A stretch of 45,767 bases of DNA, from assembly GCA_016288465.1 (NCBI GenBank), contig JAEEZC010000003.1, forward strand, positions 1 to 45,767, read 5' to 3'. The first letter of the stretch is position 1. Each line of letters begins with the position of its first letter. The notes under the pieces were generated by a model. The model searched no databases, was not told the DNA's origin, and saw only the letters and a list, made by a program, of their open reading frames with translations. The translations under genes and the position numbers were made by a program. Below, in pieces: positions 20,127-45,556 of this stretch. Source of the stretch: Verrucomicrobiota bacterium. Its GTDB lineage: Bacteria; Verrucomicrobiota; Kiritimatiellia; RFP12; UBA1067.

Positions 20127-20155
20127 TTGACTGTGCGGCATTTTTTAGGTATAAT
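20127..20155 (+). promoter_or_regulatory. Sigma70-type promoter, TTGACT-17 nt-TATAAT
   Basis: TTGACT at 20127..20132, a 17-nt spacer, and TATAAT at 20150..20155. It lies directly after the galM stop and 33 nt upstream of the transporter ATG. Confidence 0.6.
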
Positions 20156-35228: not shown

Positions 35229-36416
35229 GTGCGCTCTCCAAAGACAATTCTGGTGCTGCTTTCGTCTGGAGGGGACTTCTCTATGCAGATGTTCTCCGGC
35301 GTCCAGAAGTACGCGCGCATGGCTGGGTGGCATCTCCAGACGGTCGAGTACGCCAAGGCGGACAAGGGAGGCTATATGCTGAACCGTTCGCCGTCCGGCC
35401 GCGACATCGGCGAACTGCTTAAGTTCTGGAATCCGGACGGATGCATCGTCGAGTGCGGCATGGCGCAAGAGCTTCTGCGCTCGGTGGACTTCAAGAAACG
35501 TCCTACGGTTTTCCTCGACCGGCATCCGCCGGCCGGAAAGTCCGACATGGTCTGCGTCTACAGCGACGCGGAATCCATCGCAAGGTACGCCGCGCGCGAA
35601 CTGCTGATGTCCAGTTATGGCGACTTCGCCTATGTGCCGTATACGGAAGACTTCGCCTGGAGCCGTGAGCGCGGCGAGGAGTTCTCGAAACTCGTCCGGA
35701 TGAACGGCAAGCGCATTCACGTCTTCAGGTATCCCGAGCGGCAAAGTCGTCCGGAAAGCATGGTGGAGATGTTTTCGCCGTGGTTGCAGTCTCTTCCCAA
35801 GCCCTGCGGCGTGTTTGCGGCCAACGACCAGGTCGCCGAGGGCGTTCTGCTCGCCTGTTCCTGCTGCGGAATCGCCGTTCCGGACGAAATGTCCGTCGTC
35901 GGCGTCGATGACGAGACATACATCTGCGAGAACTGCAAGCCGACGATATCGAGCGTCCAGCGCAATTTCGCCAACGCCGGCGCGATCGCGGGGGAGACGC
36001 TTGCGGAGCTGATGGACGCGAAGGACGGGCGCGTCGCCTCGCGCACATATCCGGCGGCAGGGCTTGTCCGCCGCGAGTCCTCGCGCATCATCAAGGGCAA
36101 AGACCGCCGTGTCGCGAAGGCGGTGGAGTACATCCGCTGCCACGCCTGCGACGGAATCGGTCCGCAGCAGGTCGTGGCGGAGATGGAAATCTCGCGCACG
36201 TTGGCCGACCTGAGCTTTCGCGCGGCACTCGGGCACACGATCCTCGACGAGATACACGCCGTCAGGCTGGATCACGTCAAGAAGCTTCTTGCGAAGGAAG
36301 TCGCGCCGTCCGTCATCGCCGGACAATGTGGCTATTCTTCCATTGTCGATCTCCGCAGGGTTTTCAAGGCTAGGCTCGGCATGACAATGGGCGAATACCT
36401 TGCGTCGCTGGCGTGA
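35229..36416 (+). CDS. Hybrid transcriptional regulator: LacI-type periplasmic-binding-protein sensor domain plus C-terminal AraC-type HTH (XylR-like architecture)
   Basis: PBP type-I hallmark VFAANDQVAEGVLLACSCCGIAVPDEMSVVGVDD. C-terminal AraC HTH (VEYIRCHA...ISRTLADLSFRAALGHTILDEI...AGQCGYSSIVDLRRVFKARLGMTMGEY). GTG start at 35229. Confidence 0.8.
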   Translation: MRSPKTILVLLSSGGDFSMQMFSGVQKYARMAGWHLQTVEYAKADKGGYMLNRSPSGRDIGELLKFWNPDGCIVECGMAQELLRSVDFKKRPTVFLDRHPPAGKSDMVCVYSDAESIARYAARELLMSSYGDFAYVPYTEDFAWSRERGEEFSKLVRMNGKRIHVFRYPERQSRPESMVEMFSPWLQSLPKPCGVFAANDQVAEGVLLACSCCGIAVPDEMSVVGVDDETYICENCKPTISSVQRNFANAGAIAGETLAELMDAKDGRVASRTYPAAGLVRRESSRIIKGKDRRVAKAVEYIRCHACDGIGPQQVVAEMEISRTLADLSFRAALGHTILDEIHAVRLDHVKKLLAKEVAPSVIAGQCGYSSIVDLRRVFKARLGMTMGEYLASLA

Positions 36417-36441
36417 AGGCTGCCTGTTTGGGATGTGATTC

Positions 36442-36489
36442 GATTTCTGTTTGATTTGTATCTTATTGTAGGTGTGTCTTTGCTATAAT
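36442..36489 (+). promoter_or_regulatory. Promoter A: 22-nt motif GATTTCTGTTTGATTTGTATCT, 20-nt spacer, TATAAT(ACC)
   Basis: Motif at 36442..36463 and TATAAT at 36484..36489. An identical motif with identical spacing occurs at 39720..39767. Lies 48 nt upstream of the glycine-rich protein ATG. Confidence 0.55.
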
Positions 36490-36536
36490 ACCCACAGACT
36501 GTTCGACAAGACAGGCAAAAGGGAGGAGACACGCGT

Positions 36537-39023
36537 ATGGCAATTCGCGAATATGCAACAAAGACCGCAGGCGTTCTTGCGGCTGTCGCGCTCGGGCTGT
36601 CGGCCCGTGCGGACTTCGTGCTCGAAGGCGACGCCAATTCCACGACGTCAGCCGTCGGGGCGGACGACGTGATAACGTTCACGCAGTCCGGCACGCTCAC
36701 GGTAACCGGCTCCGGCACAGTCAATATTCTGCTCGTTGGCGGCGGGGGCGGCGGCGGTTCGCACAAGGCCACCGACGGAAACATCAGCGGCGGCGGCGGT
36801 GGCGGCGGCGGTGTTGTCTATACCAATTCGTTTGCCGTTACGGCAGGGACATACAACATTGTGGTGGGTGCGGGTGGTGTCGGCGGCGGCAAGCCGGAGG
36901 ACAATACGAAAGTCGATGGCACGAACGGCGGCAATACGACCGCTTTCGGCTTCACGGCATACGGCGGCGGCGGTGGCGCGGCATGGGGCGGTCGCGTAGG
37001 CCTCAGCGGCGGTTCCGGCGGAGGGTCGACATCTGCTTGGGACAGTCGTGTTGAAGGCGGAACGGCGATTCACGCCCAAGACGGTAATATCGGCTATGAC
37101 GGAAAGACTGCAGTTCATGCATACACGCCCGGCGGCGGCGGCGGTGCGAGCAATTCGTCGACGGTGGACTCGGAACGCGCAGGGAAGGACGGCATTGCAA
37201 TCGACATAACCGGTGAATCCGTGTACTATGCCGGCGGCGGCGCTGGCGTCAGCTACACGCGCACGACGGCAGGTGGCCTTGGCGGCGGAGGAAACAAGGG
37301 CGAAAAGGGAACGGACGGCCTTGGCGGCGGCGGCGCAAGCGGCTGCGACGGAGGCAGCGGAATTGCAATCATCCGCTATACGCCGCAGTTTTCCGATTCA
37401 AGTTCCTTTTCCATATCCGGAGATGCCAATGCCGAAGAACTTACGCTCCACGACGGCAATGCGCTTGTGTTCCGTCAGAACGGCACGCTTACCGTAACAG
37501 GTGCCGGGATTGTGGACATCCTTGCCGTTGGCGGCGGTGGCGGCGGCGGAGCCACCAACTCCGCAGGAGAGGTTGCCACTGGCGGCGGCGCGGGCGGACT
37601 CGTCTACAGGCAGTCGGTCGCCGTACATGCGGGAACGTTCAGCATTGTTGTCGGAGCGGGCGGTGCGATTGGCGCGAACGGCGGCAACTCGTCCGTCCTC
37701 GGCATTACGGCTTACGGTGGTGGCGCCGGCGCCAAGAGTGGAGGGAATCATCCTGGCAATCCTGGCGGTTCCGGCGGTGGTGCGGCACATGCCTGGGGTG
37801 AGGATGCGAGTACGACAATGTCCGGAGGCGAGGCGGCCTACGCTTCATCAGACAACCATGGTTCTGCCGGCGGTTCGTCCTATTCGTACTATGGTTGCGG
37901 TGGCGGCGGCGGAGCAGGCTCATCGCCTATTTACCGAGACAAGGATGGCGAGACGATCGAAATTGGGGCGGAAAACGATAAAGGCTCTTATCCGCAATGG
38001 GGAGGCGACGGCTTGGCAATCGACATTACCGGGCGGTCGGTCTATTACGCCGGTGGCGGCGCGGCATTCCGGTCTGGCTATAGCAGGCCGAGCGGTGGCA
38101 AGGGCGGCGGAGGCGGCTACAACGAGGACGGAACCGACGGACTCGGCGGTGGCGGTTCGGGCAATCACAGGGGCGGAAGCGGTGTCGTGATCGTGCGTCT
38201 GCGCAGAAAAGCCTCTCCGATAGCGCACGAACCTGCGACCGGCGGCTCTGTAATCCGCGTCGGCGGGGGCTACCGTGCACACAGGTTCACGCAGAACGGA
38301 ACTCTTGTCGTCCCGAAGAACATTGTCGCCGACGTTCTGCTTGTTGGCGGCGGAGGAGGCGGCGGTTCGCACAAGGCAACCGACGGGAACATCAGCGGTG
38401 GCGGCGGCGGAGCCGGCGGTCTCGTTTACAAGACGAACATTGTCATTGCGGCAGGAACATACGATGTTGTGATCGGTGCGGGCGGTGTCGGCGGCGGTAA
38501 GCCGTCAGACAACACGAAGGTCGATGGCACGGACGGCGGCAATTCGACCGCATTCGGCTTCACGGCATACGGCGGTGGCGGTGGCGCGGCATGGGGCGGT
38601 CGCGTAGGTCACAGCGGCGGTTCCGGCGGCGGTTCGACATCTGTTTGGGATGAGAGCGTGGAAGGCGGCAAGGCGATTCACGCCGAAGACGGCAATATAG
38701 GCAATGATGGAATGCCTGCGACCCATGCATACGCGCCAGGAGGCGGCGGAGGTGCGAGCAATTCGACAACAGTGGATTCGACACGCGCTGGGAAGAACGG
38801 CATTGCAATCGACATAACCGGTGAATCCGTGTACTACGCCGGCGGCGGCGCGGGCGTCAGCTACACGCGCACGACGGCAGGCGGCCTTGGCGGAGGAGGA
38901 AACAAGGGCGAAAAGGGTACGGACGGCCTTGGTGGCGGCGGCGCAAGCGGTTGCGACGGCGGTTCTGGCGTCGTGATCATCCGCTATCGTTACGAGGCTG
39001 GCACTTTCATCTTCGTGAAATAA
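36537..39023 (+). CDS. Secreted glycine-rich repeat protein (three about 270-aa glycine-rich domains)
   Basis: Signal peptide (AGVLAAVALGLSARA). Three repeats each carry Q.GTL.V....V(N/D)(I/V)L.VGGGGGGG...GGG.GG(V/L)VY....V..GT(Y/F).(I/V)V(V/I)GAGG...YYAGGGA...GGSG(I/V).I(I/V)R. No catalytic motif recognised. Confidence 0.85.
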   Translation: MAIREYATKTAGVLAAVALGLSARADFVLEGDANSTTSAVGADDVITFTQSGTLTVTGSGTVNILLVGGGGGGGSHKATDGNISGGGGGGGGVVYTNSFAVTAGTYNIVVGAGGVGGGKPEDNTKVDGTNGGNTTAFGFTAYGGGGGAAWGGRVGLSGGSGGGSTSAWDSRVEGGTAIHAQDGNIGYDGKTAVHAYTPGGGGGASNSSTVDSERAGKDGIAIDITGESVYYAGGGAGVSYTRTTAGGLGGGGNKGEKGTDGLGGGGASGCDGGSGIAIIRYTPQFSDSSSFSISGDANAEELTLHDGNALVFRQNGTLTVTGAGIVDILAVGGGGGGGATNSAGEVATGGGAGGLVYRQSVAVHAGTFSIVVGAGGAIGANGGNSSVLGITAYGGGAGAKSGGNHPGNPGGSGGGAAHAWGEDASTTMSGGEAAYASSDNHGSAGGSSYSYYGCGGGGGAGSSPIYRDKDGETIEIGAENDKGSYPQWGGDGLAIDITGRSVYYAGGGAAFRSGYSRPSGGKGGGGGYNEDGTDGLGGGGSGNHRGGSGVVIVRLRRKASPIAHEPATGGSVIRVGGGYRAHRFTQNGTLVVPKNIVADVLLVGGGGGGGSHKATDGNISGGGGGAGGLVYKTNIVIAAGTYDVVIGAGGVGGGKPSDNTKVDGTDGGNSTAFGFTAYGGGGGAAWGGRVGHSGGSGGGSTSVWDESVEGGKAIHAEDGNIGNDGMPATHAYAPGGGGGASNSTTVDSTRAGKNGIAIDITGESVYYAGGGAGVSYTRTTAGGLGGGGNKGEKGTDGLGGGGASGCDGGSGVVIIRYRYEAGTFIFVK
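36729..37380. repeat. Intragenic direct repeat, copy 1 (domain 1 of the glycine-rich protein)
   Basis: Collinear without indels with 38337..38988 at a constant 1608-nt offset. Includes a 38-nt exact run (37191..37228 = 38799..38836). Confidence 0.85.
38337..38988. repeat. Intragenic direct repeat, copy 2 (domain 3 of the glycine-rich protein)
   Basis: See copy 1. By eye, roughly nine in ten positions are identical overall, and higher in the last about 190 nt. Confidence 0.85.
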
Positions 39024-39049
39024 AGAAGCCTGATACGAGCTTTGCGGTA

Positions 39050-39085
39050 TTCGCCGCCGTTGCCACACCCTGGCGCGGCGGCGAA
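39050..39085 (+). terminator. Candidate intrinsic terminator hairpin after the glycine-rich gene
   Basis: TTCGCCGCCG (39050..39059) pairs with CGGCGGCGAA (39076..39085) across a 16-nt loop. The following tract is only weakly T-rich. Confidence 0.4.
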
Positions 39086-39132
39086 CATTGAATTTCGTGT
39101 AGGATTGACGAAAATCAACATTGATTTTCGTG
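39085..39132. repeat. ACATTGAWTTTCGTG boxes: two direct copies 33 bp apart plus an inverted copy forming a perfect 11-bp inverted repeat
   Basis: Direct copies at 39085..39099 and 39118..39132. ACGAAAATCAA (39108..39118) and TTGATTTTCGT (39121..39131) are exact reverse complements separated by 2 nt. Confidence 0.6.
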
Positions 39133-39314
39133 ATGCCGATATGCGCCGCGGGGACAGGCCCCTCCGGTTACGGAATGTAAACCGAAGACCAACGCAGACG
39201 GGCCTTCGCTAACGCTCGGCCAAGAATACGCAAGCGTTAGTGTCGTCTCTGTCGATTCTTGTTCCTTCGTCTGCTTGACAGGGTTGCCTAAGGTGTCAAA
39301 ACGCCTTGCTCCTT

Positions 39315-39391
39315 CTATGTAAGCTTTGTCGGTCACCTATGTAAGCTCATTCCCCTAACTGTGCGAGCTTCTTTCTCTGCCTGTGTAAGCA
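39315..39391. repeat. Four direct CTRTGYRAGC(W) boxes with exact 22-bp phasing
   Basis: Boxes start at 39315 (ctatgtaagct), 39337 (ctatgtaagct), 39359 (ctgtgcgagct) and 39381 (ctgtgtaagca). Confidence 0.8.
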
Positions 39392-39395
39392 GTAG

Positions 39396-39476
39396 AAATG
39401 ACGCCATTTCACCCTCCAAATGACGTCATTTCACCCCTCAAATGACGTCATTTCAGGGTTCAAATGACGTCATTTC
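39396..39476. repeat. Four AAATGACGYCATTT(C) palindromic boxes with exact 22-bp phasing
   Basis: Boxes start at 39396 (one T>C deviation), 39418, 39440 and 39462. Three are perfect 14-bp palindromes. An inverted CTGTGT-type box closes the array at 39481..39490. Confidence 0.9.
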
Positions 39477-39719
39477 TACTGCGAACACAGATAGGAGAGA
39501 TTTTTTGCATAAGGAAAACAGCCGGAAAACACGGTTAGGAGAAGGGAAATGCGCAAGTAGGCGAAAATTCTCCTAAGTCCGTCGAAAGCTAACTCCTATC
39601 GCGAAGCCTGACAGTTCTGCGAGACGGGAATGCACCGATGCGTGAGCATCCACGGCTCGGAGTTTCAAGTTAGCCGCGTGTGCTCTCGCGGCTTCCTCCT
39701 GCTGTCTCAAACGTGACAA

Positions 39720-39767
39720 GATTTCTGTTTGATTTGTATCTCCTGGTTGGCGCGAGTTTGGTATAAT
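39720..39767 (+). promoter_or_regulatory. Promoter B: identical 22-nt motif GATTTCTGTTTGATTTGTATCT, 20-nt spacer, TATAAT(ACC)
   Basis: Motif at 39720..39741 and TGGTATAATACC with TATAAT at 39762..39767. Lies 30-36 nt upstream of the glycosidase start codons. Confidence 0.55.
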
Positions 39768-39796: not shown

Positions 39797-42409
39797 GTGT
39801 GCATGAAGTTGTGTTCGTCCATACTGCTTGCCGTAGCCGTCGCCGCGAACTGCCGTGCGGCCGCTTCGCCTTTCGGCATCTGCGAACACATCGCCGCGCC
39901 GTCGAGCTACATGCAGGGCGGAGAGTACACGAACCGTGTCGCGATGCTGAACTACTGCCGCGCCGCCGGAATCGGCATGGTCAGGACGGACTTCCGCTGG
40001 AGGCTTTGCTGGTCGGCCGTGAGCGGCGACTGGTCTTGGACGTATTTCGACAATGTGATTGCGGACGCCGAAAGGCGAGGCGTAGAAGTGCTTCCGATAC
40101 TCTTCGGCGACAACCCGGCAACCGGCGCGAAGGCGTACGACGACCTCGACGGATGGGCGGAATTCGTCCGGCAGGTCGTCACGCGCTACAAAGGGCGCAT
40201 CTCGGCGGTGGAGGTCTGGAACGAGTGGAACCATCCGTACTTCTGGACCGGCACAATTGCGCAGTACGCGCGGCTTCTGGAGCGGACCGCCGCGACCGTG
40301 CGGGCGGTCGATCCTTCCGTGCGCATCGTGATGGGCGGGGTCGCGGGCGCCGATCTCGCATCCATCGAGAAGCTTTGCAAGGCGGCTGCGCTCGACGCCT
40401 TCGACGCCGCGGCGTTCCATCCATACTGCTATCCCAATCCGCCGGACTACGATTCGAACTGGCTTGCCAGGCGCATAGAGGCCTTGCGGACTCTTCTCGA
40501 CGGGCAGGGGCGTTCGAGCGCGACGATATGGGTTACAGAAATCGGCTGGCCGACCGAAGGCGACGCGGCGGTAACCGAGGCTCTTCAGGCCGTATACATA
40601 ACGAACGCTGTGAACATCGCGGTTTCGGCCGGAGCGGAGAAGGTGTTTGCGTACGAACTGCGGGCGTGGGGCGTGCCGGAGGACGGAAGGGAAGGCTCGT
40701 TCGGCATAGTGAACCGCGACAACTCCGCGCGTCCCGGCCTTTACGCATACCGCGCATACATCCGCAGCCAGACGACCGGCGAAGCCGATCCTTTGGCCGA
40801 CGCCGTCTTCTTTGCAGGTTCGGATGGATGGGACGTACGTTCGTTTTCCGGCGGCGCGGGCTGGTCTGACCGCCGCGCTCCGCATCCCGACGCCGACTAC
40901 ATTGTCGACTTCGGCGATGCAGGAACGCTTTGGACGCCGTCTGCCAGCACGACGTTCGGCGGACGTTCCCTGACGCTCGGGCGCGTGAACGGCTTGGCCG
41001 GGAACGTGAGACAGATCGGCTGGAATGTTACCGCAACGGTCTCAGACCTTCGCCTTGGTAGAGGACGTTGGGAGGTTACTTCGGGAGCCGGCAACCATCT
41101 TGAAGTCCTCGCAGGCGCCGCAACAGTGCTTTCGCCCGCGTCGGATCCGTTCGTCTTCGCGCCCGCTGCACAGGACTCCGACCATGCCTTCACTCTGTCC
41201 GCGTCTCTTTCGGGTCCTGCGTCGTCGGCAATTGCCTTCACCGAAGGCGCGACGGAGACGGACACGCTCGACGCGACGGTTTCGGGCGACGCTTCCGCCT
41301 TTGTAGGACAGTTCATGGCGACAGGCCCGCGCGTCACGTTGCGTCTCGATTCCGCCGCGCTCGCCGGATGCGACGCCGCGCCGCGTTCGGACGGCGTGTC
41401 GCTTTCCGACGGTGCGACGCTTGCGCCGCTTTTCGACGGACAGTCTCTTTCCTCTTCTTCGCGCGGCTTTTTGTCCGACGGAACCGCAGTCATAGAAGTG
41501 CCGGACGGCTGGAGCTTCACGCTTTCCGTTCCGCTTTCGGGGTTCTTCTTGAAGCGCGGCGAAGGGACGCTCGTCATCGGAAGCGGAGTTTCAGGCGCAG
41601 GCGGAATCGTCGTCGAGGAAGGCTCCGTCGTCCCGGAGAACGCGAACGCGGCGTCGCGCATTCTCTCCTTTTCCGGCGGACGCGTTCTCGGGACTCTTGG
41701 CGCGGACTCCTTCGAAGGAGTTGCCGTCGGAAGCGCGACTGCCGCGCTTGACGGCTGGACTGGCGAAGGTTCGGTAGCGTCCGCCACGCCTGTGCCCGGC
41801 TCGGGCGTAGGCTGGCCGTTGCCCGGAGAGAATCACTCCAAAGCGCTGAAGCTGGAAGGCGCGCCGGTGACGAGAGACTATGCGGAGTCTGGCGTTCAGG
41901 AGCGTGCTTCGCTCGACATGCTCGTTCAGGTGCGGCGCTTCAGAGGCGACTGGCGCACAGTCTTCACTCCTGCGGAAGGCGAAGCCAGAATGTCCGTCGC
42001 GTTCGATTCGGACGGCGCGCCATGGCTTTGGCATGCGGACGCGGAAGGGCGTCCGGTCTGGACGCGGCTCAGGGCGAGGCGCGCGTTCGCGAACGGCGAC
42101 TGGGTTCGCGTTTCGCTCGACTTCGACTACGCCACGAATCCGCAGGGGCTTGCCTTCGTTCAGGTTCGGCTCGACGGATGGTGCGCCACGGCTCCCGAAG
42201 GATGGAAGAAGCCGTTCGAATCGGTGGGCGGAGGAACCTGGTTCCGTCTGCTTCCCGTGGATTCGGATGCGAAGTCGGTGTCGCGCGTCGGTTTTGAAGG
42301 AGCGTTGGCGCTCGACGATGTCGTTCTCGCTTCGCGCGACGACGCCGAGCCGTCTCCGTTGGGACGGGAGAAGGTTTTCGTTCCGGGATGCGCCATGTTC
42401 GTAAAGTAG
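39797..42409 (+). CDS. Secreted multidomain glycoside hydrolase: clan GH-A TIM-barrel (GH39/GH5-like), beta-strand-repeat (PATR-like) middle region, LamG/concanavalin-like C-terminal domain
   Basis: Signal peptide. Acid/base-type motif VEVWNEWNHP and nucleophile-type motif IWVTEIGWPT. Middle region is rich in G/S/A/T beta-repeat sequence. C-terminal jelly-roll-like segment. Start is ATG 39797 or 39803. Family assignment is from motif memory only. Confidence 0.85.
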   Translation: MCMKLCSSILLAVAVAANCRAAASPFGICEHIAAPSSYMQGGEYTNRVAMLNYCRAAGIGMVRTDFRWRLCWSAVSGDWSWTYFDNVIADAERRGVEVLPILFGDNPATGAKAYDDLDGWAEFVRQVVTRYKGRISAVEVWNEWNHPYFWTGTIAQYARLLERTAATVRAVDPSVRIVMGGVAGADLASIEKLCKAAALDAFDAAAFHPYCYPNPPDYDSNWLARRIEALRTLLDGQGRSSATIWVTEIGWPTEGDAAVTEALQAVYITNAVNIAVSAGAEKVFAYELRAWGVPEDGREGSFGIVNRDNSARPGLYAYRAYIRSQTTGEADPLADAVFFAGSDGWDVRSFSGGAGWSDRRAPHPDADYIVDFGDAGTLWTPSASTTFGGRSLTLGRVNGLAGNVRQIGWNVTATVSDLRLGRGRWEVTSGAGNHLEVLAGAATVLSPASDPFVFAPAAQDSDHAFTLSASLSGPASSAIAFTEGATETDTLDATVSGDASAFVGQFMATGPRVTLRLDSAALAGCDAAPRSDGVSLSDGATLAPLFDGQSLSSSSRGFLSDGTAVIEVPDGWSFTLSVPLSGFFLKRGEGTLVIGSGVSGAGGIVVEEGSVVPENANAASRILSFSGGRVLGTLGADSFEGVAVGSATAALDGWTGEGSVASATPVPGSGVGWPLPGENHSKALKLEGAPVTRDYAESGVQERASLDMLVQVRRFRGDWRTVFTPAEGEARMSVAFDSDGAPWLWHADAEGRPVWTRLRARRAFANGDWVRVSLDFDYATNPQGLAFVQVRLDGWCATAPEGWKKPFESVGGGTWFRLLPVDSDAKSVSRVGFEGALALDDVVLASRDDAEPSPLGREKVFVPGCAMFVK

Positions 42410-42423
42410 GTATCGGAGGAAAG

Positions 42424-44064
42424 ATGATGAGATGTTCGGTTCGCCAGATCGAGATTGTCGCTTTATTGGCTGCGGTTGTAGTCCAGTGCGCATTCGGGCA
42501 TGGAACTTCGCTCGGCACGTGCGCCCATGTGACGCGCGACGAGTTCGCGGAGAGGGATGCCGCCTACAAAATGATGCGCGAAGCGGGAATGGACTACGTC
42601 AGATGCGACTTCGACTGGCGCTGGTACCAGAATGGCAGGGACGCGCCGTTAGACTGGCGCATGTGCGACGCTGTCGTTGGCGACGCGGCGAAGCGCGGAA
42701 TAACCGTCCTGCCGATCCTCTGCAACCCGCCGGATTGGGCAAGGCCGGTGCAAGACCATGTCGCGGAATGGCGTTCGTTCGTGCGCGCGACGGCAACGCA
42801 CTTCAAGGGACGCATCCCGGTCTACGAAATCTGGAACGAGGAGAACCATCCCGGCTTCTGGAAGAATCCGAATGCCGAGGACTACGTGCCTGTCCTTAGG
42901 GCCGCATACGAGGAGATCAAGGCGGTCGATCCGTCTGCCAAGGTCGCCATCGGCGGCACTGCCGGGTTGGCGCTCGATTATCTTGAGGACGTGTACAAGG
43001 CGGGCGGCAAAGACTGCTTCGACATAATGAACGTCCATCCGTACAGCTGGCCGAATCCGCCGGACGCGCTTGCCGGGCAGATGGAGAGTCTGCGCAGGCT
43101 CATGGCGAAGTACGGCGACGCGGCGAAACCGGTCTGGATAACGGAGATTGGGTGGCCGACGCACAGGGCTTCCGTGCCGATGGCGGGCGTTCTGCTCGCA
43201 GGGCTGAAGATAGCCCGTCCGGAACGGAAAACCTGGCGCGTCGGCTACGTCGACGAGGCGGACAACATGGACATGACGCGGGATATCGCAGAGGGAATCC
43301 GCGAATGCCTTCCGCAAGGTTCGACGTGCAGGGCCTGTACGGCGGCGGAGCTTGTCGCGGCGCTTGGGACGAACGGACTCGACGCGGTCGTCTATCCGTA
43401 CACTGAGGCGTATCCGTTCGCGACGGTCAAGGCTGTGGCGCAGTTCGTGAAGCGCGGCGGAGTGCTGGCTGATTTCGGCGGCTCGCCGATGTACTATCCT
43501 GTTCTGGACGGAAAGCGCGTCCAGAAGGATGCCGAAGGAAAGGACCTTTTCGGCGCGACGGCGCCGAAGTTCCGCATCAGCGTGTATGGTCCGGGCAAGG
43601 AGAACGGGCTTAAATGGGGCGTAAAGACGTTCGCCACCGACGCTGCGACAAAGGCCGGCATGAAGTTCGAGCCGAACGGATTCGGCGCGTTCCGGTTCTT
43701 CAGGGCCGACCGTCTGCAGTCCGGCGACGAGATGGTTCCGCTTCTGTCGGTGAAGGACGTGAAAGGGGAGGACGCTGTCAGCGCATGCGTATACCGCTTC
43801 GGCAGCGACTTGAAAGGGGCTGTGATCGTCTCGGGCTGCACGGGCGCTGCGGGCGGAGTCGGCGAGCGGCAGCAGGCGGAATATCTCCAACATGCGCTGG
43901 CCGCGGCTGCGCAGACAGGCGTCGAGCGCGTGTTCGTCTACGAGTTTCGCGCGAACGAGAAGGATCCGCGCTACAGCGAAGACCATTTCGGCATCGTCCA
44001 TCGTGATTTCACCCCCAAGCCCGCGTATGAGGTGCTCAAAGCCGGCTCCGATGTCCAATTGTAA
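42424..44064 (+). CDS. Secreted clan GH-A glycoside hydrolase paralog with C-terminal GATase1-like (GH42 domain-B-like) module
   Basis: GGAGGA SD, then ATG 42424 and a signal peptide. YEIWNEENHP and VWITEIGWPT motifs, plus HPYSWPNPPD shared with the upstream paralog (HPYCYPNPPD). Confidence 0.85.
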   Translation: MMRCSVRQIEIVALLAAVVVQCAFGHGTSLGTCAHVTRDEFAERDAAYKMMREAGMDYVRCDFDWRWYQNGRDAPLDWRMCDAVVGDAAKRGITVLPILCNPPDWARPVQDHVAEWRSFVRATATHFKGRIPVYEIWNEENHPGFWKNPNAEDYVPVLRAAYEEIKAVDPSAKVAIGGTAGLALDYLEDVYKAGGKDCFDIMNVHPYSWPNPPDALAGQMESLRRLMAKYGDAAKPVWITEIGWPTHRASVPMAGVLLAGLKIARPERKTWRVGYVDEADNMDMTRDIAEGIRECLPQGSTCRACTAAELVAALGTNGLDAVVYPYTEAYPFATVKAVAQFVKRGGVLADFGGSPMYYPVLDGKRVQKDAEGKDLFGATAPKFRISVYGPGKENGLKWGVKTFATDAATKAGMKFEPNGFGAFRFFRADRLQSGDEMVPLLSVKDVKGEDAVSACVYRFGSDLKGAVIVSGCTGAAGGVGERQQAEYLQHALAAAAQTGVERVFVYEFRANEKDPRYSEDHFGIVHRDFTPKPAYEVLKAGSDVQL

Positions 44065-44291: not shown

Positions 44292-44408
44292 ATGGTGCTC
44301 GGAAAAATTCAGCATTTCATGACGCGTCGCTTTGACAGGGAAGGGACGAAACGCCATCATGTTCAGACGTTTCGTGCCATGCGCGCGCTTCCTCCGGACA
44401 TGCGATGA
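44292..44408 (+). CDS. Tiny basic ORF (38 aa), hypothetical
   Basis: MVLGKIQHFMTRRFDREGTKRHHVQTFRAMRALPPDMR. Its TGA overlaps the ATG of the next tiny ORF (ATGA). Below the ORF-track cutoff; read by hand. Confidence 0.25.
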   Translation: MVLGKIQHFMTRRFDREGTKRHHVQTFRAMRALPPDMR

Positions 44409-44546: not shown

Positions 44547-44604
44547 TGTCAGATTCGCCATTAGGCAGTTCCGGCTGAGAGAGCCCGGACAGGCCTGCGG
44601 GCGG
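44547..44604. repeat. Direct repeat copy 1 (TGTCAGATTC plus a 48-nt hairpin-containing unit)
   Basis: The 48-nt unit 44557..44604 (GCCATTAGGCAGTTCCGGCTGAGAGAGCCCGGACAGGCCTGCGGGCGG) is identical to 45509..45556. An imperfect hairpin pairs 44563..44574 with 44585..44596. Confidence 0.85.
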
Positions 44605-44767: not shown

Positions 44768-45049
44768 GTGGCTACAGTTACAGTTCGAGAGTTGTCTGCA
44801 CGCACGCTTGATGCGCTTAAGATGCGCGCAAGCGCAAACCACCGCAGTCTCAATGGCGAGATACTGTGCATTTTCGACTACGCGGTCTCCGGCTCGTCTG
44901 AGTTTGACTTCATACGTGAGAACCGGGCAAGGAGCCAACGCGATGCTCTTAAGGCCGTGTTCGGCAGATGGGACGACGACAGAAGCGAAGATGAGATTGT
45001 CAGGGAGGTTGAGAATTCCCGGACGAAGGGCCGGGAGGTCATCCTTTGA
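44768..45049 (+). CDS. vapB: Ribbon-helix-helix antitoxin (FitA/VapB-type)
   Basis: N-terminus TVRELSARTLDALKMRASANHRSLNGEILCIFDY matches the Arc/FitA RHH pattern. GTG start. Its stop overlaps the toxin start (TTGA). Confidence 0.85.
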   Translation: MATVTVRELSARTLDALKMRASANHRSLNGEILCIFDYAVSGSSEFDFIRENRARSQRDALKAVFGRWDDDRSEDEIVREVENSRTKGREVIL

Positions 45050-45438
45050 TATTGCTTGATACGAATGTCCTCATTGCCATACTTCGCGGCAATAAGAAGG
45101 TCGCTGAGCGCTTCTCGCGTAATCTTGGGGATATGGCGATTCCCGCAATGGTTGTAGGCGAACTGCATTTCGGTGCCGCTAAATCCAGGAATCCGGCGAA
45201 AAACCGGAGATTGGTACAGGCACTTCTGGGGGCGCTTCCTGTCATGCACACTACTGACGCGATAATGGAACTGTTCGGCGAGCATAAGGCGGTTTTGGCA
45301 AGCCGAGGAGAATCAGTCGAGGACGCGGATGTCCTCATTGCCGCAACGGCCCTTGCCTATGACGCGACGCTTGTTACAGGCAACATCCGCCATTTCTCGC
45401 GATTTGAGGGGTTGCGGATTGAAGACTGGAACAGTTGA
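45046..45438 (+). CDS. vapC: PIN-domain ribonuclease toxin (VapC/FitB-type)
   Basis: MILLDTNVLIAIL... with conserved acidic residues (D5, E39 region, D-rich SVEDADVLIAATA). 130 aa. TTG start. Confidence 0.9.
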   Translation: MILLDTNVLIAILRGNKKVAERFSRNLGDMAIPAMVVGELHFGAAKSRNPAKNRRLVQALLGALPVMHTTDAIMELFGEHKAVLASRGESVEDADVLIAATALAYDATLVTGNIRHFSRFEGLRIEDWNS

Positions 45439-45473: not shown

Positions 45474-45556
45474 TGTCAGATTCTCCGACAGCCGTCGTAT
45501 ATTCGTGTGCCATTAGGCAGTTCCGGCTGAGAGAGCCCGGACAGGCCTGCGGGCGG
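45474..45556. repeat. Direct repeat copy 2 (TGTCAGATTC, 25-nt insertion, identical 48-nt unit)
   Basis: TGTCAGATTC lies at 45474..45483. The 48-nt unit 45509..45556 is identical to 44557..44604, 952 bp downstream of copy 1. Confidence 0.85.

Follow-up and report, generated by a model that had tools for sequence, protein, structure and literature searches.

A tandem 13-mer upstream of two extended -10 promoters as a putative operator of the adjacent XylR-type regulator in a Kiritimatiellia bacterium

Genes and features at the locus

The stretch of DNA analysed here (the "window") comprises 45,767 nucleotides of contig JAEEZC010000003.1 from a Verrucomicrobiota bacterium of the class Kiritimatiellia. 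The part that concerns us holds a gene for a XylR-type regulator, followed on the same strand by a gene for a glycine-rich protein and by two glycoside-hydrolase genes, and a copy of the same 22-nucleotide motif precedes each of the two latter units. The relevant features are listed below; promoter positions are reckoned from the predicted -10, with the start placed ~7 nt downstream of it.

35283-36416, + strand: XylR-type regulator gene, putative binder of the motif (Peripla_BP_3, PF13377, 9e-28; AraC-type HTH_18, PF12833, 2e-10)
36424-36436, + strand: CTGTTTGGGATGT, the first promoter's distal 13-mer (~-72 to -60); it lies 23 bp before the proximal one and matches it at 10/13 positions
36442-36463, + strand: 22-mer at the glycine-rich-protein promoter, an exact repeat; its core, 36447-36459, is CTGTTTGATTTGT (~-49 to -37)
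36481-36489, + strand: extended -10 of the first promoter, TGCTATAAT, with no -35-like hexamer 16-18 nt upstream
36537-39023, + strand: gene for an 828-aa secreted glycine-rich protein, the first target (PF21722, Gly_rich_2, 2e-54, in three stretches; signal-peptide-like N-terminus)
39029-39103, + strand: GC-rich hairpin, a probable terminator between the units
39104-39701, no strand: non-coding DNA between the units, with an array of TGACGTCA palindromes
39702-39714, + strand: degenerate distal 13-mer of the second promoter, CTGTCTCAAACGT, matching the first promoter's distal copy at 8/13 positions
39720-39741, + strand: the other 22-mer, in the promoter of the glycosidase operon, with its core at 39725-39737
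39759-39767, + strand: extended -10 of the second promoter, TGGTATAAT, assigned from the sequence and from strain comparison
39803-44064, + strand: two overlapping glycoside-hydrolase genes, the second target (weak Pfam matches PF00150 and PF01229; homologues and synteny)
39803-42409, + strand: the GH5-like gene, 868 aa, beginning with an ATG (39803) in the frame of the listed ORF
42388-44064, + strand: the GH39-like gene, 558 aa, overlapping the GH5-like gene

The regulator gene ends 26 nt upstream of the first 22-mer, and ~780 nt separate the glycine-rich gene from the GH5-like gene. The closest PDB relative of the regulator is E. coli XylR (4FE4/4FE7, E about 1e-27; residues 99-372), which likewise combines a LacI/PBP-like sugar-binding domain with an AraC-type DNA-binding domain (9e-28 to 4FE4). 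XylR-like regulators are numerous, with 606 homologues at E <= 1e-30 and many paralogues in these genomes; all named homologues in the regulator and glycine-rich protein searches belong to Kiritimatiellia. Two Gly_rich_2 homologues (P0060 and P0080) are fused to sigma-70 region 2 and 4 domains (PF04542, PF08281, PF04545), an unexpected architecture for a glycine-rich surface-type domain.

Downstream of the glycosidase genes, two identical 48-nt direct repeats (44557-44604 and 45509-45556, 952 bp apart) flank a toxin-antitoxin pair, made up of a PIN-domain toxin (45046-45438; PF01850, 2.6e-16) and a 94-aa ORF (44769-45050) that matches nothing in Pfam and is assigned as the antitoxin by position. 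The arrangement looks cassette-like, and the G+C content is low there (0.52). A 38-aa fragment with a weak, sub-threshold HipA_C match (44292-44408) stands behind another TATAAT promoter.

The repeated motif and the promoter layout

A preliminary description of this DNA had placed the same 22-mer at 36442 and 39720, each copy 20 nt before TATAATACC, and this was borne out to the letter. A pattern search of the window finds GATTTCTGTTTGATTTGTATCT exactly twice (36442-36463 and 39720-39741, both on the + strand), and in either case TATAATACC comes after a further 20 nt. When up to 3 mismatches are allowed, the same two matches are the only ones in the window, and 100 shuffles give none. The motif is 77% A+T in a genome of 63% G+C, and it would span about -54 to -33 if the start lies ~7 nt after the -10.

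The -10 block common to both promoters is TTTGsTATAATACC, an extended -10 of the TGnTATAAT type. A -35-like hexamer is absent from both motif-bearing promoters of the window, and our sigma-70 scan calls neither of them because it needs a -35. The -10 assignment nevertheless seems reasonable for both, since all six TATAAT hexamers in the window lie on the + strand where a promoter might be expected, upstream of + strand ORFs and within intergenic DNA or at its margin, and one of them, at 20150, belongs to a canonical TTGACT-17-TATAAT promoter. The other four TATAAT promoters of the window have nothing similar to the motif at -54 to -33.

Both -10 elements are of the sigma-70 type, TATAAT with a TGn extension, and neither sigma-54 elements (GG-N10-GC, -24/-12) nor ECF elements of the GAAC...CGT type were found at these promoters. 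A sigma-54 reading of the spacers was considered and given up: it misses the expected spacing by one, and strains do not keep the TGGCGCG-like string that the second promoter has in its spacer. Rfam gave no match at gathering scores anywhere in the window.

It was also proposed earlier that the half-sites of the motif are an internal repeat with an 11-bp period, GATTTCTGT / GATTTGTAT. We reject this pair as the conserved unit because orthologous promoters keep the 13-mer CTGTTTGATTTGT and a copy of it 23 bp upstream, and do not conserve the 5' GATTT. The layout of each promoter in the window can be written as [13-mer] - 10 nt - [13-mer CTGTTTGATTTGT] - 24 nt - [TGnTATAAT], with no -35. As judged from this comparison, the conserved unit is a tandem of 13-mers with a 23-bp period, ~36 bp in all. 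The core 13-mer ends at about -37 and abuts the position of the -35 hexamer, and the sole part of the 22-mer that overlaps it is the species-specific ATCT tail. At 3 mismatches the further 13-mer sites in the window are its own distal copy (36424-36436) and two chance-level matches in coding DNA.

Orthologous promoters and paralogous regulators

Orthologues of the regulator were retrieved with their flanks from five loci, L129 (68% identical), L130 (66%), L131 (63%) and L132/L133 (60%). In every one of them a 13-mer near CTGTTTGATTTGT (0-3 mismatches) stands right after the regulator stop codon, 24 nt (23 in L132) upstream of TATAAT, TACATT or GATAAT, which is preceded by TGC or TGG. A second 13-mer lies exactly 23 bp further upstream, where it overlaps the regulator stop codon. 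This distal/proximal arrangement is present in L129 (at two promoters), L130, L131 and L132. Counted together with the window, the tandem at its 23-bp period occurs in 7/7 promoters examined (in the second window promoter its distal copy is degenerate). Since L130 is partly related to L131, and L132 to L133, the seven should be read as ~4-5 independent lineages. The distance from the end of the 13-mer to the -10 hexamer is 24 nt in six promoters and 23 nt in one, with no TTGACA-like hexamer at 16-18 nt. The 10-nt linker and the 24-nt spacer have diverged completely among the orthologous promoters.

The genes downstream of these promoters vary from lineage to lineage. In L129 the promoter is followed by a gene for a protein of 1007 aa whose PATR match is weak and sub-threshold; in L130 and L131 PATR-repeat proteins follow, in L130 with a GH106/GH39-like enzyme after them; and in L132 a small protein is followed by FGE-sulfatase, cellulase and fucosidase genes. 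The second promoter at the L129 locus shares this layout and precedes the operon to which the regulator gene belongs. One regulator gene flanked by two promoters with its putative site is thus an arrangement that recurs independently in L129. Across ~150 kb (the window and the related loci), the 13-mer at up to 2 mismatches is found at these promoter positions only.

Paralogues serve as a control here. The recognition helices of the regulator are near-identical among the motif-bearing loci (HTH1 ISRTLADxSFRxAxGHTILDEIH; HTH2 RCGYSSxxDLRRVFK), and they differ both in a 55% paralogue (P0148, in L134) and in the XylR-like genes beside a 62% glycine-rich orthologue (L127), the second L127 regulator among them. 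The 13-mer is absent from the promoters checked downstream of these regulators with other helices (L127 and L134), and in this small sample the site sequence co-varies with the recognition helices. In L134 (7645-7700), the P0148 regulator gene is followed by a different direct repeat, AAAGTGTCGTTAT / AAAGTATCTTTTT (AAAGTrTC...), again with a 23-bp period and upstream of TGGTAGAAT. Because this other repeat keeps the same period, the comparison suggests that the 23-bp geometry is a family trait and the sequence regulator-specific. At a further locus (L128, with a 63% glycine-rich orthologue whose upstream neighbour is not a regulator), the promoter of this orthologue has a related site, TGATTTGTTTC, twice with a 24-bp period before TAGAAT. 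Elsewhere on L134, a related Kiritimatiellia contig, several hundred nucleotides of G+C-rich tandem repeats (CGCCGCGTCCACTG, GACACACGCGGCGGGGACGCCGCGTCCACTTGTC; 2127-2830) lie upstream of a GH2 gene.

The preliminary description had read the motif as one dedicated control element common to both transcription units. This reading is strengthened by the adjacent XylR-like gene, by the position of the site, kept in four other lineages, and by the paralogue loci that do not have the motif.

Variation among strains

Three other assemblies of the species were identified through exact or near-exact proteins, namely L001, L002 and L126, the last with 95.2% nucleotide identity. From L126 the window does not differ at all in 36400-36599, against an average of 4.8%, and the spacer of the first promoter is invariant. 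The second promoter behaves otherwise. The 100 nt around it hold 11 differences between the window and L126, 7 of them in the 20-nt spacer between the 22-mer and the -10, and L002 has a third version of this spacer. When 39742-39761 is set against 13206-13225 of L126 and 611-630 of L002, there are 6-7 differences among strains that are ~95% identical. On either side of the spacer, the window, L126 and L002 agree letter for letter in the 22-mer, in the 30 nt before it and in the -10, and between the window and L126 the identity extends over the 160 nt upstream. The spacer of the second promoter is a local substitution hotspot. Please note that conservation of 22 nt among 95%-identical strains is, on its own, only weakly informative.

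The strains also differ in gene content just downstream. Between the second promoter and the GH5-like gene, L126 carries an extra gene for a 377-aa GH28-like protein (L126 13267-14460 compared with window 39803-39870). In the window strain, the mature GH5-like protein is joined instead to the signal peptide of this GH28-like gene, MKLCSSILLAVAVAANCRAA. This fusion implies a deletion, and the window strain appears to have lost the GH28-like gene through a deletion between the two signal-peptide regions.

Origin of the second promoter

The preliminary description held that the sequence flanking the two 22-mers was otherwise dissimilar and that the repeat was not a duplication of the whole region. 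Neither statement is supported. Outside the 22-mer, the flanks from -72 to -13 match at 21/38 columns (binomial p ~1e-3; 1e-4 of random offsets reach this value), a repeat finder aligns 69 nt at 75% identity across both promoters, and each window promoter is more similar to the other one than to the promoters of the orthologous loci. Since the flanks match and the promoters are closer to each other than to their orthologues, diverged copies of one module are the simplest account; the second promoter probably derives from the first and has diverged since.

A reason for keeping such a copy may be found in the DNA between the units. Directly after the stop codon of the glycine-rich gene lies the GC-rich hairpin at 39029-39103 (MFE -39.5 kcal/mol, z = -4.3, with 0/200 shuffles as stable). 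A simple terminator scan makes no call here because the extended stem with internal bulges does not fit its pattern and the T-run is weak. The non-coding DNA that follows (39104-39701) is missing in relatives in which the glycine-rich and glycosidase genes are adjacent: in L127 the glycine-rich gene and the GH gene are 33 nt apart, and in L003 a 546-aa gene comes directly after the glycine-rich gene, with the GH gene behind it. We infer that an ancestral glycine-rich-plus-glycosidase operon was probably split by a ~700-nt non-coding insertion and the terminator hairpin. A second promoter would be needed, and kept, because the hairpin and the insertion split an operon that is still single in relatives, and the second operator-promoter copy would restore co-regulation of the glycosidase genes.

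The non-coding insert has structures of its own. Four 14-bp palindromes AAATGACGTCATTT with a strict 22-bp period, bracketed by the inverted repeats CTGTGTAAGCAGTAGAAATGACG / CGTCATTTCTACTGCGAACACAG, lie at 39381-39490 (12848-12950 in L126), and together they resemble a set of operators or iterons, or else a small mobile element. At ~39110-39131 there is a perfect palindrome with 10-bp arms, CGAAAATCAA-CA-TTGATTTTCG.

The leaders share a 9-mer, CAAGACAGG. It was weighed as a second control element and rejected, since strain L126 has CAAGCCAAGG instead and a third copy is found within coding DNA; a leftover of the duplication is the likelier explanation.

If the second promoter is a copy, the 22-mer could be identical by descent only, that is, the undiverged part of a recently copied promoter that acts as a generic, UP-like AT-rich element. 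The similarity that extends beyond the 22-mer (both the flank columns and the 69-nt alignment), the 9-mer common to both 5' leaders and the high A+T content of the motif in a G+C-rich genome would all suit this account. It does not explain, however, why orthologous promoters, beside regulators of only 60-68% identity, keep the 13-mer and its distance while linker and spacer have diverged completely, why the other four window promoters have nothing comparable in the same place, or why the spacer beside the motif changed at 6-7/20 positions between strains and the motif did not. We regard descent alone as improbable.

Comparison with known activator sites

The regulator's likeness to E. coli XylR extends to the presumed sites. 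E. coli XylR uses ~37-bp sites of two direct repeats beside weak -35 elements at two promoters (PMC3561964). The layout in the window, predicted here from sequence, resembles the E. coli operators IA and IF (at xylAB and xylFGH) in its length (~36-37 bp), its two direct repeats, the poor -35 and the two promoters per regulator. The recognition sequence is another one, CTGTTTGATTTGT here and repeats of the gaAa-a-a-AAT type there; a GATTT(T/G)T-like element occurs in both, in opposite orientation relative to transcription, which makes for a weak resemblance. Further, the promoters here are co-directional and 3.3 kb apart, whereas those of E. coli are divergent and separated by ~360 bp. Instead of xylose catabolism and transport genes, the targets here are GH5/GH39-like enzymes and a glycine-rich surface protein, and no CRP site is evident.

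The wider class offers a similar picture. Class II sites of the AraC/XylS family (araI1-I2 of AraC, the sites of RhaS, Om of XylS, and MelR) are tandem direct repeats about two helical turns apart that end at or next to the -35 of a promoter in which this element is poor. E. coli XylR, AraC, RhaS and XylS all occupy a site beside such a -35 and recruit RNA polymerase. The sites described here are likewise tandem direct repeats ending beside a missing -35, but with a period of 23 bp instead of the usual 21, with an extended -10, and with a core 13-mer that abuts the -35 without overlapping it. The marbox of MarA/SoxS/Rob, by comparison, is a single asymmetric 20-bp site for one double-HTH domain. 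The 22-bp unit with sub-elements 11 bp apart that was proposed earlier would fit one AraC-type domain in two adjacent major grooves in this manner. Because a second full 13-mer is kept 23 bp upstream in the orthologues and the 5' GATTT sub-element is not, the comparison points to two bound domains rather than a single marbox.

A proposed mechanism and its alternatives

The preliminary description had suggested a site for an activator of the AraC/XylS type by the -35, and this fits well with an adjacent gene whose product has an AraC-type HTH and with promoters that have no usable -35. We consider it likely, with good confidence, that the 22-mer holds the promoter-proximal recognition site of the adjacent XylR-family regulator, that both targets are switched on together, and that the second promoter is a diverged copy. 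Under this proposal the regulator would bind an inducing sugar and occupy the ~36-bp tandem site beside the missing -35, the bound regulator would recruit RNA polymerase, and the glycine-rich surface protein gene would be switched on together with the GH5-like/GH39-like operon. Sugar-dependent activation of both promoters, with the binding, the sign of the control, the inducer and the transcription starts, is deduced from the layout, because it matches that of E. coli XylR and of class II AraC-family sites. Judging by the GH28-like and GH106 neighbours found in relatives, rhamnose, galacturonate and oligosaccharides of pectin or rhamnogalacturonan would be candidate inducers.

The sign of the control deserves particular care. 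Extended -10 promoters can work without a -35 or an activator, and the site could for this reason in principle repress instead of activate; alternatively, it could be the real site of a factor other than the adjacent XylR-like protein, of which the many paralogous regulators among the 606 homologues offer no shortage. Against both versions, the site at -72 to -37 lies wholly upstream of the spacer and the -10, where AraC-family activators sit, and overlaps neither the -10 nor the start; the motif goes together with a single orthologous group of regulators and is missing beside paralogues; and the XylR-type regulator with an AraC domain is an activator in the characterised case. A repressor site, or a site for another factor, therefore seems to us a poor prospect next to activation by the adjacent regulator.

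A bolder extension of activation by the adjacent regulator may be mentioned as speculation, argued from analogy and rather doubtful. In E. coli, one XylR dimer bridges two separate operators and loops the DNA. By analogy, one regulator dimer might bridge both co-directional promoters across 3.3 kb by DNA looping, the ~90-nt operator-plus-promoter module might be a copyable cassette, and the variable spacer might be a strain-level strength knob. If true, the surface glycine-rich protein and the glycosidases would fire as one unit despite the terminator between them, and the lineage would use the module again to mend or rewire operons that had taken up insertions; in L129, too, two copies flank the regulator.

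Wider occurrence of the motif

Larger sequence collections were scanned with the motif and its core. The 22-mer has two matches in JGI metagenome contigs, one of them (L124) an unrelated match in coding DNA of a Methanoperedens-type organism and the other on a 1.6-kb contig (L125), and none in viral contigs. Its 18-mer core, TTTCTGTTTGATTTGTAT, matches at least 119 loci in genome contigs, and among the matches listed, which include none from the window's own species, all are chance matches, mostly in AT-rich genomes, and none has a -10 at the right spacing; the 18-mer is too permissive as a query. In the collections scanned (for genome contigs, among the matches listed), the motif is not a widespread repeat.

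That the motif belongs to a mobile or repetitive element scattered regardless of promoters seems very unlikely from the window, the related loci and the collections scanned: the second copy does lie at the edge of a ~700-nt repeat-bearing non-coding insert, the contig of another same-species assembly breaks off directly behind the glycine-rich gene, a hint of repeated DNA there, and in strain L002 the module abuts a different upstream gene, but there are only two copies in 45.7 kb, both properly upstream of genes, no exact copy occurs in the viral contigs and the JGI metagenome match L124 is an unrelated chance match, no inverted or direct terminal repeats bracket the module, and the relatives never show it apart from the regulator gene and a -10.

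Significance

Kiritimatiellia are uncultured or barely cultured polysaccharide degraders, and literature searches on Kiritimatiellia regulators found nothing relevant that describes their promoters or regulons. What is described here is an ordinary kind of gene switch, now in a little-studied phylum, and no new regulatory principle. Its use lies in the detail. The comparison yields a candidate operator for one orthologous group among the numerous XylR-like regulators, [yTGTTTGAwTTGT]-N10-[CTGTTTGATTTGT]-N24-[TGnTAnnnT], and it displays a promoter layout with an extended -10, no -35 and an upstream tandem site. It also joins a Gly_rich_2 surface protein with GH5-like and GH39-like enzymes in one putative co-regulated unit, which in relatives takes in GH28-like and GH106 enzymes. 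The pattern may be used to predict regulons in metagenome-assembled genomes.
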